Shown here: positions 43,741 through 58,263 of the stretch, piece after piece
Numbering within the stretch: the first letter of the stretch is position 1
Layout: the number at the start of each line of letters is the position of its first letter
Assembly: GCA_008273105.1 (NCBI GenBank)
Contig: GCA_008273105.1_4080.1
Direction: 5' to 3' (one strand)
Length of the DNA stretch: 64,000 bases
Source: a phage
Translations under genes and position numbers: made by a program
The notes under the pieces: generated by a model
The model's input: only the letters and a program-made list of their open reading frames with translations
What the model was told of the DNA's origin: nothing
Database searches by the model: none

Positions 43741-45609
43741 TTATTTGTGCTGAATACGCTCGCAACACTCTTGTTGCTTGCCTTTATTGAAGCCACGCGA
43801 AGAAGGATTACCCAAGTACCCAGAAACACGACGAATCACTGAGATTGTCTTCTCATTACGATTATCACATACAGGACAGTGGAAACCATGTTTATCGACA
43901 CTGAACTCACCCTGGAAGCCACATTCATAACAATGGTCAACTGGTTGGTTAATACCAAAATATGGTATCTTAGTGTACGCATAGTTAACTAATGTTTCAA
44001 GTGCTTGAATGTTGTTTGCTAAGTTTGGAGATTCAACATAACTGATGTTTCCACCGTTACTTAGGTAAGCAAACCCTTCTTCATAACTCCATTTATCAAA
44101 TGGAGAACTTTCTACCCATACTGGTTGATGGAAGGAATTTGTGATGTAATCACGTTTTAGTACTGAAGGATATTTTGCTTCAATGCAACGTGCAAATTTA
44201 TAACAAAGTGACTCTGCTGGCGTTCCATATAGACTAAAAGCTATATTACTCTCTTTTTTGAACTCATCGCATTTTACTTTCATATAATTCAGTACTGACA
44301 TACAAAACTCCTTACTGATAGAACCAGTGAGGATTTCTGAACATTCAACAAGTCCAACATAACCAATACTAATACTAGCATAACCATTGTAAAATAGCTT
44401 GTCAATGGTTTCTTCTGCACCTAAACGTGCTAATGCACCTTCCATGAACAAAATTGGATTTTGCTTTGCTTTAGTGCCTTTTAAACGCTCTACGCGGTTC
44501 ATCTGAGCACGATATGCAATATTCATATGCTCGTCTATCTTATCAAAAAACTCTCCGTCAGAAGTACTCTCAAGAGCAATTAGAGGTAAATTGATAGAAA
44601 CCACACCTAAATTGAAACGACCGTTGTATTGTTCATTTCCATTTGAATCTTCCCATTTTCCTAAGAATGAACGACAGCCCATCGGTGTTACAGCAGTACT
44701 ACTACTTCCAGTCACTTTGTGATTTAATGGTACTGAAACAAAGTCAGGGTAGATTCGTTTTGATGCACAACGCATAGCTAACTGTTTAAGGTCATAATTA
44801 CTATCGTTGGTATTCATGTTTATACCATCTTGTAAAAAGAAAATTACTTTAGGAAACACTGGAGTAATCTTATCTTTACCTAAACCATTCTCATGGACTT
44901 TTAAGTACTGTTCAGTGATTAATTTGCCAAATTTAGAAGTGTTAAGACCTAAACTAAGAGAAATAAATGCAGCTTGACCATTAGTACTAATCATTGAATT
45001 AGTTTGGTAAAGTAATGTTTGGCAGCCATCATACACTTCTTTACGTAGTTCTTCTTCAATGAATTCATCACTTAGATTATATTTCTTTTGTTTTTCTAAC
45101 AGCTTATCCCATGACTTTTGAACGTAAGGTTCTAATCCGACATCAATGTGAGCCAAAGATTGACCACCATACTGGGAACTGGCAACAGCTTGGACAATTT
45201 GTGTCAGTACTGTGCAAGCTACACTGAAACTTTTTGGTTCTTCAATTTTAGCACAACCAATAGTGAAGCCGTTTTTAAGCATATCAGGATAGTTAACCAA
45301 GCAACAATTGGTCAATGGGCTAATATAGTAATCTAAATCATGAATATGACCATATCCATCATTATGCCATTGCATTAACTCGGTGGGAATAACATCTTGT
45401 GAATAATGCTTAGATAGAATACCTGCTAGTAAATCTCTATGTGTATTGACGCATTTTGCATCTTTATTAGCGTTTTCATTAGTAAGATCAGTATTACTCT
45501 GATTTAGGAAATTTGTTACATCGGTATATAATTTATCTAATTGCATTGTACATTCCTTGTATTTTGAAATCATCTGGGGGTGAAGATATTTAATATCACC
45601 AGACAACAT
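43741..45609 (-). CDS. nrdD: anaerobic ribonucleoside-triphosphate reductase (class III), large subunit
   Basis: 622 aa; C-terminal glycyl-radical motif RRVSGYLG; four-Cys site CYECG...CPVCD. Confidence 0.9.
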   Translation of the reverse strand: MLSGDIKYLHPQMISKYKECTMQLDKLYTDVTNFLNQSNTDLTNENANKDAKCVNTHRDLLAGILSKHYSQDVIPTELMQWHNDGYGHIHDLDYYISPLTNCCLVNYPDMLKNGFTIGCAKIEEPKSFSVACTVLTQIVQAVASSQYGGQSLAHIDVGLEPYVQKSWDKLLEKQKKYNLSDEFIEEELRKEVYDGCQTLLYQTNSMISTNGQAAFISLSLGLNTSKFGKLITEQYLKVHENGLGKDKITPVFPKVIFFLQDGINMNTNDSNYDLKQLAMRCASKRIYPDFVSVPLNHKVTGSSSTAVTPMGCRSFLGKWEDSNGNEQYNGRFNLGVVSINLPLIALESTSDGEFFDKIDEHMNIAYRAQMNRVERLKGTKAKQNPILFMEGALARLGAEETIDKLFYNGYASISIGYVGLVECSEILTGSISKEFCMSVLNYMKVKCDEFKKESNIAFSLYGTPAESLCYKFARCIEAKYPSVLKRDYITNSFHQPVWVESSPFDKWSYEEGFAYLSNGGNISYVESPNLANNIQALETLVNYAYTKIPYFGINQPVDHCYECGFQGEFSVDKHGFHCPVCDNRNEKTISVIRRVSGYLGNPSSRGFNKGKQQECCERIQHK

Positions 45610-45682: not shown

Positions 45683-45710
45683 AGAAAAAGCACCACAAGG
45701 GTGCTTTTAA
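45683..45710 (-). terminator. hairpin terminator upstream of nrdD
   Basis: Stem AAAAGCACC/GGTGCTTTT, 5-nt loop, U-rich tail on minus strand. Confidence 0.5.
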
Positions 45711-45823: not shown

Positions 45824-46046
45824 CTGGACTCCATGTAATAGTTACTGTGAACGTCCCTTCTTGAAAACCAAACTCATCTTGTGGGATTTGTTCAGCTAAT
45901 GGGTTAAATCTTGAATCGAAGGCTTCATGCACATCTCTCTGAATATCATAGAGACTTTCACCATCGTATTCTTTTTTAAAGATTTCATTCTGCATTGATA
46001 CGTAACGACCCTCGTATTCTGTCTGGATAGCCATCAAATAGTTCAA
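45810..46046 (-). CDS. hypothetical protein (possible frameshifted continuation of upstream ORF)
   Basis: 78-aa ORF overlapping 45985-46395 by 62 nt. Confidence 0.4.
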   Translation of the reverse strand: MNYLMAIQTEYEGRYVSMQNEIFKKEYDGESLYDIQRDVHEAFDSRFNPLAEQIPQDEFGFQEGTFTVTITWSPDETS

Positions 46047-46395
46047 TAAGTTGGTTTAACGCATAAGAACTGAAGAATGGATTATTCTTTGCAATTTCTA
46101 TTCGTTTTTCAATATCCATTAATATAATCTCTGGTCTACTGAAATTACCTTTACGTCTATATGTTAGTAAACGCTCTTTGTGTCCGTTGAACTGAAATTC
46201 AAAATATGTTGATGATGTATAATCACTTCCATCAGGAATCGGAATTGAGAAATCAACATTGTACTTATAACCAAATGCAAAAAAATAACCACCATCTTCG
46301 AACGGTATAGTTGTATCATTTAGGTGGAAATCTATTTCATCTCCTAATATATCAAATATCTTGGTACTTAGAGACATAAAATCATCGGCTAACAT
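45985..46395 (-). CDS. hypothetical protein
   Basis: 136-aa ORF. Confidence 0.45.
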   Translation of the reverse strand: MLADDFMSLSTKIFDILGDEIDFHLNDTTIPFEDGGYFFAFGYKYNVDFSIPIPDGSDYTSSTYFEFQFNGHKERLLTYRRKGNFSRPEIILMDIEKRIEIAKNNPFFSSYALNQLIELFDGYPDRIRGSLRINAE

Positions 46396-46403
46396 TTTTT
46401 ACC

Positions 46404-46622
46404 TTATTTTATAACTCGACAGTAGTACTGAATAATGTAAGGAAATAATGGATTATTCACGTATGTAGCGAAATTAGCTATTGTAACTTTTTTATAGTAC
46501 GAATTATGAATTGTTATAAGAGTGTGGGGATCTATTGATTCTCTATTAGAGAGTTCAACATAACGCCCACACTTCATATAAGCCTTACCATAATAATCGT
46601 AAATTATGTCATATTTTTCCAT
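46404..46622 (-). CDS. hypothetical protein
   Basis: 72-aa ORF. Confidence 0.45.
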   Translation of the reverse strand: MEKYDIIYDYYGKAYMKCGRYVELSNRESIDPHTLITIHNSYYKKVTIANFATYVNNPLFPYIIQYYCRVIK

Positions 46623-46982
46623 TTATTCTGGATCTTTGTTTTTATCAACTGTGTTGTTTTTATTCAAATCAATTTGTAAAGCCATTGCAGCTTCAGCATT
46701 TTCTTCATGTGTGCCATTGAATTTATACCCATTCTTAATGAGATTCACTGTGTAGTACTTATTGTAAAGAAATGCCCACACGACCATTGCAATTGTACCC
46801 ACAATCCAAAATGACACTGCGTTGAGGATGAAGTAAATTACAAATGCACCGATGAACGTAATAAAGTCACCACGAAACAATGCAGGGAACGGTCCAAAGA
46901 ATAATGTTGTCCATGAGAATCCAAAGAAACCATCTTTGCGTTGTCCTACATTTTCATTTTTTAAAGAAATAGTTTTAGCCAT
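46623..46982 (-). CDS. membrane protein
   Basis: 119 aa, two hydrophobic helices. Confidence 0.5.
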   Translation of the reverse strand: MAKTISLKNENVGQRKDGFFGFSWTTLFFGPFPALFRGDFITFIGAFVIYFILNAVSFWIVGTIAMVVWAFLYNKYYTVNLIKNGYKFNGTHEENAEAAMALQIDLNKNNTVDKNKDPE

Positions 46983-46991
46983 TTTAATCTC

Positions 46992-47216
46992 CTACTTATT
47001 ATTTGGGTTTGGTATACAGTACACATATACTAGATTACTAAAGTGTTCAGTACTGGAATATTTTGCTAACTCAGTAATGTGAAAGTTCTTGTCATAAAAC
47101 CTTCCACTATTGAATGTTGTTATTTGGCAACAATGTATAGGTCTGAAAATATAATAATAAAATATATCATTTTCAACTACAACAGTATGGTTTGTATAAC
47201 GCTCGATTTTCTTCAT
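46992..47216 (-). CDS. hypothetical protein
   Basis: 74-aa ORF. Confidence 0.4.
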   Translation of the reverse strand: MKKIERYTNHTVVVENDIFYYYIFRPIHCCQITTFNSGRFYDKNFHITELAKYSSTEHFSNLVYVYCIPNPNNK

Positions 47217-47581
47217 GTGTGGATAATTTCCTTAACCCCGTATTCCATAATTGCTAATGTGCAAATTTCACATGGTTTAGCAGGTACAGGAATACCATCT
47301 TTACTTATCCGTGCAATCAGTAAAGTATGAACATCAGCACGTGCAGCTAATAAGCAAGAAATTTCAGCATGGAGAAATTCACCTTGTGGACGTCCAGCAC
47401 GAATTGCAAAACCTTTCTGTACTGGATGTGTCTGTGTATAAGAATTTGTGCGTGTTGCCAGTACTCGACCTTTTTTATCCAGTGCACGAGCAATCACACG
47501 ATACCGCTTGTAGTTCCCTACTTGCTCAATGGGTGGCATCCGGCGTAATTCTTCAACAAGTTTCTCCAATTTACTATTCAT
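47213..47581 (-). CDS. small cytidine-deaminase-fold zinc-dependent deaminase
   Basis: HAE(ISCL) ... PCEIC zinc-binding motifs in a 122-aa protein. Confidence 0.6.
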   Translation of the reverse strand: MNSKLEKLVEELRRMPPIEQVGNYKRYRVIARALDKKGRVLATRTNSYTQTHPVQKGFAIRAGRPQGEFLHAEISCLLAARADVHTLLIARISKDGIPVPAKPCEICTLAIMEYGVKEIIHT

Positions 47582-48204
47582 AAGTCTAAGTCTATACCCT
47601 TTTCAAGTGATTTTTCTAGAACCCAAAGTTTACATTCTTCACTCTCCAAATGTATCTTTGCCTCTTGCTGTTCTTCTATTGTACAAGACTTTATGAATGC
47701 ACGCAAGGCTTGGATTGTATTTTTTAAATTTTTTATGTCATCGATGATTTTTTCTTTGGTTTCTTCATCGATTACACATGAACTCCAACTGTGTCGTTCC
47801 TCCCAAACTGTTTTAGCGGGATTATATATTGATTGTGATGCATTGAATGAATGTATTTTATGAAATTTATCATCTGCTTCCTGTTGGGTATAATCCCCAT
47901 ATGTGTTCAGAACATTTTTGTATAATTCATCAATGGCCTCTTCATACGTATCACCACCACAATCCAATTGATAATCATGTGCTTGTACCCATTCGTCGTC
48001 TTGCTCAATATACATTGGTGAAAGAAATTCTACCCAAAATTGAGTCTTTGTATTCAATGCTTTGAAATCTTCAATTCGATTTGTCATTGGACACACATCA
48101 TGAGGTTCTATATCAATCCTAGCTGGAACCATATCTTTGTTTATGAATTTAGGATGACCCAAAATCCACCAGTACTTTTCCGATGTAGTCATAGTAATCT
48201 CCAA
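47578..48204 (-). CDS. hypothetical protein
   Basis: 208-aa ORF. Confidence 0.5.
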   Translation of the reverse strand: MEITMTTSEKYWWILGHPKFINKDMVPARIDIEPHDVCPMTNRIEDFKALNTKTQFWVEFLSPMYIEQDDEWVQAHDYQLDCGGDTYEEAIDELYKNVLNTYGDYTQQEADDKFHKIHSFNASQSIYNPAKTVWEERHSWSSCVIDEETKEKIIDDIKNLKNTIQALRAFIKSCTIEEQQEAKIHLESEECKLWVLEKSLEKGIDLDL

Positions 48205-48238
48205 TTAAAAAGTACTGCACACGATGGCAGTACTGATG

Positions 48239-48598
48239 TTAAACGTAACGTTTCTTTTTATAATCATACCCTACTGCTTTGTAAAAGTCAAACAAAGAAG
48301 CATGTTCAAATGTAGGTAATAGATCATATGGGTGCTGATAGTTCGCAATACCAACAATAGCCATCATTGATTCAGCAGTTCTTACGTTCTCACTATCCCA
48401 TTCATCTAAACGCCAAAGTGAGCAAAGTACCTCTCGTTCATGTTGCTTACCCAGAAAGAATCCAGCTTCACGGTCACGAAATGCACCTACACTGACAGTA
48501 CTTTTGTACCAGTCTTTTTCACCATATAATGGCATACGGATAATATGTTTTTCTTTAGCTTCTCCAAAGCGATGAAGAAATGCTACATAATCACTCAT
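48239..48598 (-). CDS. hypothetical protein
   Basis: 119-aa ORF. Confidence 0.5.
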   Translation of the reverse strand: MSDYVAFLHRFGEAKEKHIIRMPLYGEKDWYKSTVSVGAFRDREAGFFLGKQHEREVLCSLWRLDEWDSENVRTAESMMAIVGIANYQHPYDLLPTFEHASLFDFYKAVGYDYKKKRYV

Positions 48599-48765
48599 AA
48601 TTTATAACCCATTACAGGTTTGGTATGATCCGGTTCGTAAGACTTTTCAGTACTGAACCCTCTGAAATTTCCACGTCCTGGATTTGGACAAGCCATCCCT
48701 TGTATTGAATGCTTACCCTTATCTTTGCCACAATTTTTACATTTGTAGCCAATTACTTCTTTCAT
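48595..48765 (-). CDS. small Cys-rich protein (56 aa), possible zinc ribbon
   Basis: YKCKNCGKDKGKHSIQGMACP; ATGA overlap with downstream gene; below track cutoff. Confidence 0.35.
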   Translation of the reverse strand: MKEVIGYKCKNCGKDKGKHSIQGMACPNPGRGNFRGFSTEKSYEPDHTKPVMGYKL

Positions 48766-48992
48766 TGTGCATCCTTCGGAACAGTATTAAGACGTTTGCG
48801 ATTCACAATCTTCCTGCACATGAGGTTAAGATCTTGCCCATGACGCATAGTATGACATGCGTATAGTGTTCCTTGATGATTTAGTTTTGTTAAACCTTGA
48901 CGGATGATTTCAGCATCCATCTCATCAACTTTAGGAGCACATCCACTCAGAAATACAATAGAAGAAATAATAAAAATATATAATAATTTCAT
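48762..48992 (-). CDS. small lipoprotein
   Basis: MKLLYIFIISSIVFLSGC signal peptide with lipobox. Confidence 0.5.
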   Translation of the reverse strand: MKLLYIFIISSIVFLSGCAPKVDEMDAEIIRQGLTKLNHQGTLYACHTMRHGQDLNLMCRKIVNRKRLNTVPKDAQ

Positions 48993-48995
48993 AAT

Positions 48996-49175
48996 TTAAT
49001 CACCTATACATAAGTACTCGATTGATGGTTTACCATTAACTAACACAATTCCAGTGTGAGTTAATACACAGTTGTCGGGAGCTTCTTCAAATACTGATAC
49101 GTAAATGTATGAACCATTACTAACTGAACAAGATAATACCATAAGAACTGCGATTAGTACAAGTAAAAATTTCAT
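48996..49175 (-). CDS. small putative lipoprotein (59 aa)
   Basis: MKFLLVLIAVLMVLSC signal peptide with lipobox-like VLSC; below track cutoff. Confidence 0.4.
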   Translation of the reverse strand: MKFLLVLIAVLMVLSCSVSNGSYIYVSVFEEAPDNCVLTHTGIVLVNGKPSIEYLCIGD

Positions 49176-57050: not shown

Positions 57051-57306
57051 ATTCTACAGTATTAAGCTTCTGACAAATCATATCAGCTTCTACTCGGTCT
57101 TTATAATAAATGGTAAATCCAAATCTACTTGTTACCCTTTTCTCACTACGGTGTATACAGTTTACAATATAGTACTTATTATTTTGTGCAGAAAAACGAA
57201 CTTCATAATTTCGAAAAGAAGTATTAGGTTCATCCATAGCAACTATATATAACATAAAAATGAAAAACACTGTTATTAGAAAAGCAATAATAATTATTAC
57301 TGTCAT
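57049..57306 (-). CDS. small membrane protein
   Basis: 85 aa, N-terminal TM helix. Confidence 0.45.
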   Translation of the reverse strand: MTVIIIIAFLITVFFIFMLYIVAMDEPNTSFRNYEVRFSAQNNKYYIVNCIHRSEKRVTSRFGFTIYYKDRVEADMICQKLNTVE

Positions 57307-57782
57307 TTATCAAGACCCTTATCATAAATGCAATTAACAATAATTCCAGCATCTTCCAGTACTTTAATAGCTTCTGGTGGTGTACGAGGATAATTTTTGA
57401 GATAAATTACACGTGAAATCCCACTACCTGCGATCAACTTAGAACAAGTATAACATGGTTGTAGTGTTGTGTAAAGAGTAGCACCTTGACGTTCAGTAGG
57501 AGAACTATAGAGTAAAGCGTTCATTTCAGCATGGATTTCATGAATATTACTCCACTCATGATGTTCATGCTTTGCTTCATCACTAACCCAGTCTTGAAAA
57601 CACCCATCATTGACTAAGTGTTGATTCACGTCACAACAATTTGGTTGTTTTGATGGAGTACCATTGTAACCAGTACTCAATACTCGGTTATTTTTAACAA
57701 TAACACAACCAACTTTTTGTGAAATACATTTACTTTCCTCAGCAACTACTTCTGCTATCTTCAACCAAGTCGTATGTTTCAT
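57303..57782 (-). CDS. cd: dCMP deaminase (T4 Cd-like)
   Basis: MKHTTWLKIAEVVAEESKC..., HAEMNAL, PCYTCSKLI zinc motifs; start at Met5 behind GGAG. Confidence 0.8.
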   Translation of the reverse strand: MKHTTWLKIAEVVAEESKCISQKVGCVIVKNNRVLSTGYNGTPSKQPNCCDVNQHLVNDGCFQDWVSDEAKHEHHEWSNIHEIHAEMNALLYSSPTERQGATLYTTLQPCYTCSKLIAGSGISRVIYLKNYPRTPPEAIKVLEDAGIIVNCIYDKGLDK

Positions 57783-58263
57783 TATAAGCTCCAATACTTA
57801 ACAATGCGTTTTTACACAAATCATGAATTTTCATAACTCGAATATAGTTTAACACATCTGTTTCATTAATTTCAAATGGTTTATCTGCATATGTGGACCA
57901 CGTTTGATTTAATTCAATAACAAATGTAATTTTATCTGTATCCATAATATTATCACAAAATCTACGAAAATCTTGCTCTTCATCGGAAAGTCTGAAATTT
58001 AAATCATTTTTTAAACCATTAACTGTGAAGCAAATACCAGTACTGTAACCGATGCAAATATCTTCAATATCATATAATCCATAAATTAATTTAGAGATAA
58101 ACGTGCTATATTTGTTTCTATGATAATAGTTTAATATTTCTTGTTTAATATTAATTTCAATATCAGTAGTTTTTTGTAATGTAAGTTTAATTAATTCTAA
58201 TGTCTTGATTATGTTATCTAACCAGATATTAGTATCATCTATACTTAGGTGTGTGTATTTCAT
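57739..58263 (-). CDS. hypothetical protein
   Basis: 174-aa ORF. Confidence 0.5.
   Translation of the reverse strand: MKYTHLSIDDTNIWLDNIIKTLELIKLTLQKTTDIEINIKQEILNYYHRNKYSTFISKLIYGLYDIEDICIGYSTGICFTVNGLKNDLNFRLSDEEQDFRRFCDNIMDTDKITFVIELNQTWSTYADKPFEINETDVLNYIRVMKIHDLCKNALLSIGAYNETYDLVEDSRSSC

Follow-up and report, generated by a model that had tools for sequence, protein, structure and literature searches.

In this study we characterize a small deaminase gene (hereafter the mini-deaminase) in a 64,000-nucleotide stretch of phage DNA (contig GCA_008273105.1_4080.1; this whole stretch is called the window), which is a segment of an Asteriusvirus, a Rak2-like jumbo myovirus and coliphage. On profile and motif comparisons its product appears to represent a distinct subfamily of the cytidine deaminase (CDA) superfamily that lies outside every described clade. 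We tentatively propose, with somewhat less than even confidence, that it is an unregulated deaminase of the free deoxycytidine nucleotides dCMP, dCDP and/or dCTP (the mono-, di- and triphosphate). Bases 46000-49000 of the window are 99.4% identical to Escherichia phage 121Q, in which the ortholog is gp490; the gene and its GenBank label there, 'dCMP deaminase', were already known. When the whole 64 kb was scanned in six frames for [HC]xE...PCxxC, just two open reading frames (ORFs) were recovered, the mini-deaminase and a Cd-like frame at 57303-57794, and hence the combination of HAE and PCxxC in the former is not a matter of chance. The features on which the argument rests are:

47213..47581, minus strand: mini-deaminase coding sequence, 122 amino acids (aa), ATG start; ortholog of 121Q gp490 with 100% amino acid identity
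47363..47371, minus strand: codons of H71-A72-E73, the zinc ligand histidine and the catalytic proton-shuttle glutamate, at the start of helix-2
47261..47275, minus strand: codons of P103-C104-E-I-C107, with the two cysteine zinc ligands, at the start of helix-3
47417..47446, minus strand: codons of the cap motif (including N46, H52, P53 and Q55), a putative cap over the active-site pocket
47309..47311, minus strand: codon of R91, a near-invariant arginine directly after strand-3 and candidate phosphate or polyanion contact
57303..57782, minus strand: canonical T4 Cd-like dCMP deaminase (121Q gp469, labeled 'CMP/dCMP deaminase' in GenBank) with GYNG, HAEMNAL and QPCYTC motifs; the comparator and a possible functional partner

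The longest ORF of this canonical Cd (57303-57794, minus strand) begins with TTG and encodes 163 aa; the 121Q annotation and the first-pass annotation both take the ATG at 57782, giving 159 aa.

Comparison of the mini-deaminase with its ortholog from phage SP27 indicates clear purifying selection: 39 of the 366 nucleotides differ, and 32 of the 36 changed codons are synonymous against 4 that are non-synonymous. This selection, together with conservation across more than 1,000 sequence clusters, eliminates a chance ORF, and comparative sequence evidence establishes a real gene whose product has the catalytic residues and the predicted fold of the CDA superfamily.

The first-pass annotation, made from the letters of the DNA alone, had described a small CDA-fold deaminase with HAE and PCxxC zinc motifs, and this is confirmed. 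The Pfam profile PF00383 scores the protein at 29.4 bits, above its cut-off of 25, and an AlphaFold2 model based on a 23-sequence alignment has a predicted local distance difference test (pLDDT) value of 91.9. In this model a first helix (residues 3-14) is followed by two strands (28-34 and 40-45), an additional helix (53-61), a helix starting from HAE (72-80), strand 86-92, a helix starting from PCxxC (105-114) and strand 118-121, after which the chain ends. The zinc ligands thereby fall where the CDA fold has them, [HC]xE opening helix-2 and PCxxC opening helix-3 on a beta-sheet core of 2-1-3-4 order, and the first-pass annotation thus withstands the refutation that it had named, zinc ligands that fail to align with the fold in a structure prediction. 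Structural alignments are longest with cytidine deaminase and blasticidin-S deaminase (BSD), extending over 93-94 residues, with Foldseek template modeling (TM) scores of 0.5-0.56. A single-sequence search of the PDB sequences gave noise only, so that the family profile was needed to detect solved relatives. The protein has three cysteines (C76, C104 and C107), an isoelectric point (pI) of 9.7 and a net charge of +8, as against a pI of 6.2 for the Cd of the window. PHROGs assigns it to the broad phrog_174 'dCMP deaminase', none of the NCBIfam deaminase models (including ComEB/TIGR02571) comes near its cut-off, and PADLOC gives no defence-system match. These features are best explained, as far as the model allows, by a catalytically competent zinc-dependent hydrolytic deaminase with a minimal CDA core.

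The wider family is named here by phiKZ gp260, GAP32 gp134 and 121Q gp490. An exhaustive profile search recovered 4,528 clusters (at 50% identity) with E<=1e-3 and 1,087 with E<=1e-10, and the top 150 clusters are all 96-166 aa in length. The family is found almost only in phages: tblastn detects it in 196 phage records, covering every Rak2-like genus, phiKZ-like Pseudomonas phages, T4-like cyanophages and Aeromonas phages, and the metagenomic members are likewise in phage contexts. Among 185,579 prokaryotic species genomes (one per species) the pattern NSYxKTHP[LV]Q occurs at five loci, all on contigs of 0.7-8 kb from metagenome-assembled genomes, and another signature pattern gave no match in the same set.

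The catalytic residues are nearly universal across 150 members, with E73, C104 and C107 present in all, H71 and P103 in 149 and A72 in 144. The residues of the cap and the arginine after strand-3 follow closely (N46 and R91 in 147 each, H52 in 137, P53 in 135 and Q55 in 132), even though members are only about 35% identical to each other. The consensus consists of the cap motif N-S-Y-x-K-T-H-P-x-Q, the zinc motif A-K-P-C-x-I-C and the C-terminus V-x-Y-T. The mini-deaminase of the window displays the defining set of cap motif, arginine after strand-3, A-K-P-C-x-I-C, an end at strand-4 or a short hairpin, and a pI above 9. The family as a whole is strongly basic (median pI 9.64, 91% above 9, median net charge +9), whereas the canonical Cds of the same phages have pI values of 6.2-7.7. 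Tail length after PCxxC is bimodal in 199 members: about half end 15-17 residues on, at strand-4, and the rest add 10-14 residues. In an AlphaFold2 model of one of the longer members (P0049; pLDDT 88.7) this extension forms strands 125-130 and 133-138, a tight antiparallel beta4-beta5 hairpin with no helix-4. In phiKZ PHIKZ260 (L013:46758-47117) and 4L372D_072 (L009:31060-31431) HSE replaces HAE. The start codons are inconsistently annotated in the phiKZ group, the PA7 ortholog being given as 144 aa as against 119 aa in phiKZ. An apparent domain fusion in an IMG/VR contig (L027:9971-10603), with about 100 unrelated residues after 'PCSICEGG', was rejected, a frameshift or sequencing error being the most likely cause.

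Early in infection the phiKZ ortholog is transcribed from a primary start site of its own (PMC8244752), and beyond this we found no experimental work in the literature on any member. Existing labels for these proteins are 'dCMP deaminase' (121Q, GAP32 and CBB, among others) and also 'TadA', and the CBB genome paper remarks on two CMP/dCMP deaminases (PMC5259590). Judging from the profile comparisons, both labels appear to reflect domain-level similarity only. We found no description in the literature of the family as separate and almost phage-only, of its truncated or hairpin topology, of its signature motif, of its extreme basicity or of its recurrent pairing with a canonical deoxycytidine-nucleotide deaminase.

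With the family profile the nearest solved relatives are dCMP deaminases. The deoxycytidylate deaminase of cyanophage S-TIM5 (4P9C) is matched at E 1.9e-10 over the full length, including an equally long insert that separates strand-2 from helix-2, followed by the TadA-like tRNA deaminase 6L2M (E 5e-8), the S. mutans deoxycytidylate deaminase 2HVV (E 3e-7), human DCTD 2W4L and T4 Cd 1VQ2 (E 3e-6) and the classical TadAs (7e-5 to 4e-4). The residues of T4 Cd that touch the deoxycytidine moiety are V24, N40, A105, E106 and P131 (PMC12697855), and in our alignments all have counterparts in the mini-deaminase, namely V29/I30, N46, A72, E73 and P103. The weak NCBIfam matches of 104 members are most often to the anti-phage dCTP deaminase model (42), then to tetrameric CDA (24), ComEB (19) and TadA (10). 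BLASTP finds no similarity between the mini-deaminase and the window's own Cd (E 14), and a simple duplicate of that gene was rejected on this ground. The separateness from T4 Cd-like dCMP deaminases claimed at first reading is thus upheld by the lack of pairwise similarity, the missing clade hallmarks and the difference in pI. Against deaminase clades it stands insofar as no NCBIfam clade model is reached, and is qualified insofar as the closest solved relatives are still dCMP deaminases.

Gene neighborhoods and co-occurrence offer further functional pointers. Rak2-like phages share a conserved gene order comprising a 208-aa ORF, the mini-deaminase, a thymidylate kinase in the GAP32-like phages, NrdD and NrdG, the last three lying within 1-6 kb. 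The family often co-occurs with a canonical deoxycytidine-nucleotide deaminase: the canonical Cd lies 10 kb away in the window and 6 kb away in contig L023, and phiKZ combines PHIKZ260 with the Dcd-type dCTP deaminase PHIKZ214, a thymidylate synthase and a thymidylate kinase. NrdA/B is found nearby in contig L024, and in one metagenomic contig a thymidylate synthase is 9 kb from the mini-deaminase. Aeromonas phage 4L372D, whose genome is complete, encodes no HxE...PCxxC protein other than the mini-deaminase, which is accompanied by thymidylate synthase, dUTPase, NrdAB and NrdD. All carrier genomes checked have a GC content of 34-42%. The GC content of their hosts is well above this.

We therefore rank free deoxycytidine nucleotides first among the possible substrates, on the grounds of the affinity that the profiles show to dCMP and dCTP deaminases, the synteny with nucleotide-metabolism genes, the 4L372D case and the AT-rich carrier genomes. 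The protein combines an intact zinc and glutamate center with a conserved polar and basic cap motif, an open C-terminal side and a strongly positive charge. An anionic cytosine compound is the probable substrate, and retention of the cap motif among such divergent proteins suggests one universal small ligand. The N46-Q55 stretch may act as a cap over the pocket, because the equivalent insert of dCMP deaminases does so (PMC3239186). The proposed enzyme would convert dCMP, dCDP and/or dCTP to the deoxyuridine forms, with K50, T51, H52 and Q55 of the cap, R91 and K102 possibly binding the substrate phosphate, and the open active site might be completed through homo-oligomerization, as in other deaminases of about 13 kDa. 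Phosphate-level specificity is labile even among canonical members (PMC12697855), and for this reason the phosphate level used by the mini-deaminase cannot be predicted. Triphosphate-specific DCTD-like enzymes gather lysine and arginine around the site (PMC12088426), with which the basicity of the mini-deaminase is compatible by analogy. As the protein is devoid of the DCTD allosteric apparatus it would be unregulated, which might be why it is found together with a regulated Cd or Dcd: AT-rich lytic phages would possess, beside the feedback-regulated path from dC to dTTP, a second one that is free of allosteric control. The low GC content of the carriers relative to their hosts argues that the flux from dC to dT matters to these phages.

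Several observations weigh against this proposal. A hallmark of the dCMP deaminase clade is a helix-4 between strands 4 and 5 that makes strand-5 parallel (the Helix-4 division; PMC3239186), and the mini-deaminase, whose model ends with strand-4 (118-121), has neither element; it likewise ends, at T122, without the aromatic wall residue that follows strand-4 in the DCTD pocket. The allosteric-site motif G(Y/W)N(A/G) of dCMP deaminases (PMC12088426), seen as GYNG in the window Cd, is replaced by R44-T45-N46-S47, with G-x-N-S in the family. In 30 viral loci no ThyA, ThyX or Dut motif was found up to 10 kb from the gene, and the activity would be partly redundant in the window phage, which already has a canonical Cd, and in phiKZ, which has a Dcd. 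Two further points concern the nature of the substrate itself: the charge exceeds what a nucleotide site needs and resembles that of nucleic-acid binders, and it is in toxin deaminase clades that the fold is otherwise found cut short at its C-terminus (PMC3239186).

These last two points lead to the strongest alternative, a polynucleotide deaminase, which we regard as possible but doubtful. Under this hypothesis the protein would be a very small and highly basic enzyme that edits host or phage RNA (tRNA, mRNA or rRNA) or single-stranded DNA (ssDNA), flipping a base into its open active site and serving host takeover, decoding adjustment or counter-defence instead of nucleotide supply. In its favor, beside the truncation, are the AID-like charge and the absence of a lid, and phage 'dCMP deaminases' of the mSCD type, which are selective for 5-methyl- and 5-hydroxymethylcytosine (5mC/5hmC), have been shown to be able to act on nucleotides as well as ssDNA (bioRxiv 10.1101/2024.12.05.627091). 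It is conceivable, if not especially likely, that the gp490/gp260 family represents a natural, four-stranded and lid-less phage polynucleotide editor of about 12-14 kDa that acts early in infection beside a nucleotide-level dC deaminase. The first-pass annotation had left the choice between nucleotides, tRNA and nucleic acids open; here free nucleotides are a tentative preference over an editor that we consider doubtful.

The remaining alternatives fare less well. A nucleoside or free-base deaminase acting on cytidine or deoxycytidine, comparable to the homotetrameric CDA of about 130 aa or to BSD, could feed salvage by thymidine kinase, and the similarity in size is real; the HAE in place of CAE, the lack of PCxxCR and of a glutamate where strand-5 ends, and a score of 13.8 bits with TIGR01354 against a cut-off of 113.65 make this unlikely, as do the many conserved basic residues, which point to an anionic substrate. 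More improbable still is a role as partner or subunit of Cd, after the manner of ADAT2-ADAT3 or the two domains of CDADC1, or as a deaminase of 5-methyl- or 5-hydroxymethyl-dC nucleotides. All catalytic residues of the mini-deaminase are intact, which is not expected of a degenerate partner, the two genes are 10 kb apart in 121Q, and 4L372D has a mini-deaminase and no Cd; as for modified nucleotides, no thymidylate-synthase-like gene is found in cis, whereas 70% of the 5mC-selective phage deaminases from modified contigs are <=3 kb from a thymidylate-synthase homolog (bioRxiv 10.1101/2024.12.05.627091). Finally, an ordinary orthologous dCMP deaminase (hexameric and regulated by dCTP and dTTP), or a short duplicate of Cd, is what the labels in 121Q, GAP32, CBB and other phages, the phrog_174 match and the profile matches to dCMP deaminases would imply, but it is very improbable given that most of the synapomorphies of the DCTD clade are missing, that ComEB/TIGR02571 and all other NCBIfam deaminase models remain far below cut-off, that BLASTP relates it to no part of the phage's own Cd, and that the inter-subunit allosteric site of DCTD cannot form without helix-4.

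The local organization of the gene in the window involves the following neighboring features:

47578..48204, minus strand: upstream ORF, 208 aa, phrog_16370; its stop overlaps the mini-deaminase start (ATGA)
46992..47216, minus strand: downstream ORF, 74 aa; its start overlaps the mini-deaminase stop (ATGA)
48211..48234, minus strand: terminator-like hairpin a short way upstream of the 208-aa ORF (consensus match only)
45686..45708, minus strand: terminator-like hairpin ahead of nrdD (consensus match only)
43741..45609, minus strand: anaerobic ribonucleotide reductase NrdD, belonging to the deaminase-(Tmk)-NrdD-NrdG neighborhood that is conserved in Rak2-like phages

The 208-aa ORF, the mini-deaminase and the 74-aa ORF follow one another (46992-48204, minus strand) with an ATGA overlap of stop and start at each junction, an arrangement suggestive of translational coupling. 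The 208-aa ORF has no Pfam match, and its homolog is directly upstream of the mini-deaminase in all Rak2-like phages examined (L014-L020 and GAP32). Judged by their sequences, the hairpins at 48211..48234 and 45686..45708 are likely to be the 5' and 3' boundaries, respectively, of the transcription unit containing the mini-deaminase; between them lies a minus-strand unit of seven ORFs, consisting of small ORFans and the mini-deaminase, that ends just before nrdD. Five terminator-like sites were found, as against 1.5 +/- 1.3 expected from shuffled sequence. Scanned against Pfam and PHROG, the flanking ORFs of the window and the neighbors in the other phages proved to be ORFans apart from a homing-endonuclease-like protein, a DSP phosphatase and an HU-like protein.

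Several other loci deserve mention in their own right. In IMG/VR contigs L025:7622-8402 and L026:3670-4456 a hairpin-type mini-deaminase of 117 aa overlaps, by 32 nucleotides and on the same strand, a canonical 152-aa Cd with GYNG, HAELN and SPCVPC motifs. This tandem of two CDA-fold deaminases may constitute a functional pair or complex. Phage 4L372D (L011 45423-47854) encodes a Thg1-like tRNA-His guanylyltransferase and a tRNA nucleotidyltransferase with a single tRNA gene, which suggests repair or maturation of host tRNAs. That gene is tRNA-Thr(UGU), and there are no tRNA genes in the window or in the phiKZ segment, which eliminates an A34 editor of phage tRNAs. In the same genome (MK813939.1; L009 1-20300 and L012 35455-38662) a block of about 23 small genes, 001-023, recurs inverted as 024-050 and again at the right end as 241-251; either these are long repeats, inverted or terminal, or the assembly is at fault. 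A Logan metagenomic phage contig with a 101-aa family member (L004:3650-6914) encodes an NMNAT-Nudix fusion and a NAMPT-like enzyme, which resemble the known phage pathway for NAD+ reconstitution. The window itself (via 121Q 218420-223604 and 258289-259994) also encodes three ClpP/ClpQ-like proteases, a Sir2-like protein, PhoH, a Nudix hydrolase, a glutaredoxin and a macro (Appr-1-p processing) domain protein, possibly a cluster of counter-defence functions related to NAD and ADP-ribose.

Thousands of family genes are automatically labeled 'dCMP deaminase' or 'TadA' from domain similarity alone, while the separate family delineated here fails both definitions, and a nucleotide or a nucleic-acid outcome would alike correct a widespread annotation. 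If the nucleotide deaminase hypothesis is true, the family would provide a minimal unregulated route to dTTP, explaining the rebalancing of pools in AT-rich phages of GC-rich hosts and why it is kept next to a regulated Cd or Dcd. If instead the protein is a nucleic-acid editor, it would rank with the smallest nucleic-acid deaminases in nature, represent a novel type of phage enzyme for host takeover or counter-defence, and offer a compact scaffold for base editing.

Beyond the differences in helix-4, strand-5 and the allosteric site, the mini-deaminase is about 40 residues shorter than the window Cd, and its basicity departs from the roughly neutral pI of dCMP deaminases. It is devoid of the second-zinc ligands, its insert of similar length having one helix (53-61) and no cysteine, though human-type DCTDs also are without the second zinc site. 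It does not have the 'NA' after HxE, with HAE-I-S-C in its place (HAE-I-[AS]-A in the family), and has TLLIAR at strand-3, while the K-T-H-P-x-Q cap motif is specific to its own family. TadA and ADAT2 are distinguished by EPCxMC, helix-4 and strand-5, and two extra C-terminal helices with E and F contacting the anticodon loop (PMC3239186). Unlike these, including the M. capricolum enzyme 6L2M, the mini-deaminase has A-K-P-C-E-I-C and nothing after strand-4, and thus neither helix-4 and strand-5 nor any anticodon-binding C-terminal helices; conversely, the family has a long cap insert that TadA is without. NF008113 (TadA) is matched, weakly, by just 10 of the 104 members, and the carrier phages need not encode any A34 tRNA.

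With the CDA and BSD enzymes the mini-deaminase shares a single domain of about 120-135 aa, and the longer family members share the beta4-beta5 hairpin, which, if the models are correct, would assign the family topologically to the C-terminal-hairpin division, with CDA, BSD and several toxin clades. It differs from them in having HAE, an acceptable minority form, instead of the usual CAE, in having PCEIC followed by T, with no PCxxCR, in the absence of strand-5 (and, across the family, of a glutamate at its end) and in being strongly basic. The phage enzyme mSCD-B5 and its relatives are likewise PF00383 proteins whose true substrate range differs from their annotation (bioRxiv 10.1101/2024.12.05.627091); mSCD-B5 was compared by description only, and in contrast to the mSCD-type enzymes none of the 30 mini-deaminase loci has a thymidylate synthase within 10 kb. 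The anti-phage dCTP deaminase model NF041025 is the commonest partial match (42 of 104 members, best E 8e-9, over the region from HAE to PCxxC), but it describes a bacterial defence protein with an N-terminal domain in a model of 437 positions, and the mini-deaminase scores 11.6 bits against its cut-off of 400. The MafB19-like toxin deaminase profile PF14437 gives the mini-deaminase 14.6 bits, below its cut-off of 27, and matches 60 of the 104 members at E<0.01, with N46, HAE and G115 shared by the mini-deaminase; the same profile scores the canonical Cd at 57.5 bits and is consequently not clade-specific. In contrast to the MafB19-like toxins, whose architecture includes trafficking domains and an immunity gene, the mini-deaminase stands alone, with no toxin context. 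Nonetheless, it is like the truncated bacterial toxin deaminases (the XOO_2897, YwqJ, BURPS668_1122 and OTT_1508 clades, and DNA deaminases of the DddA/SsdA type) in being a small, basic, stand-alone catalytic domain that has lost its C-terminal elements.

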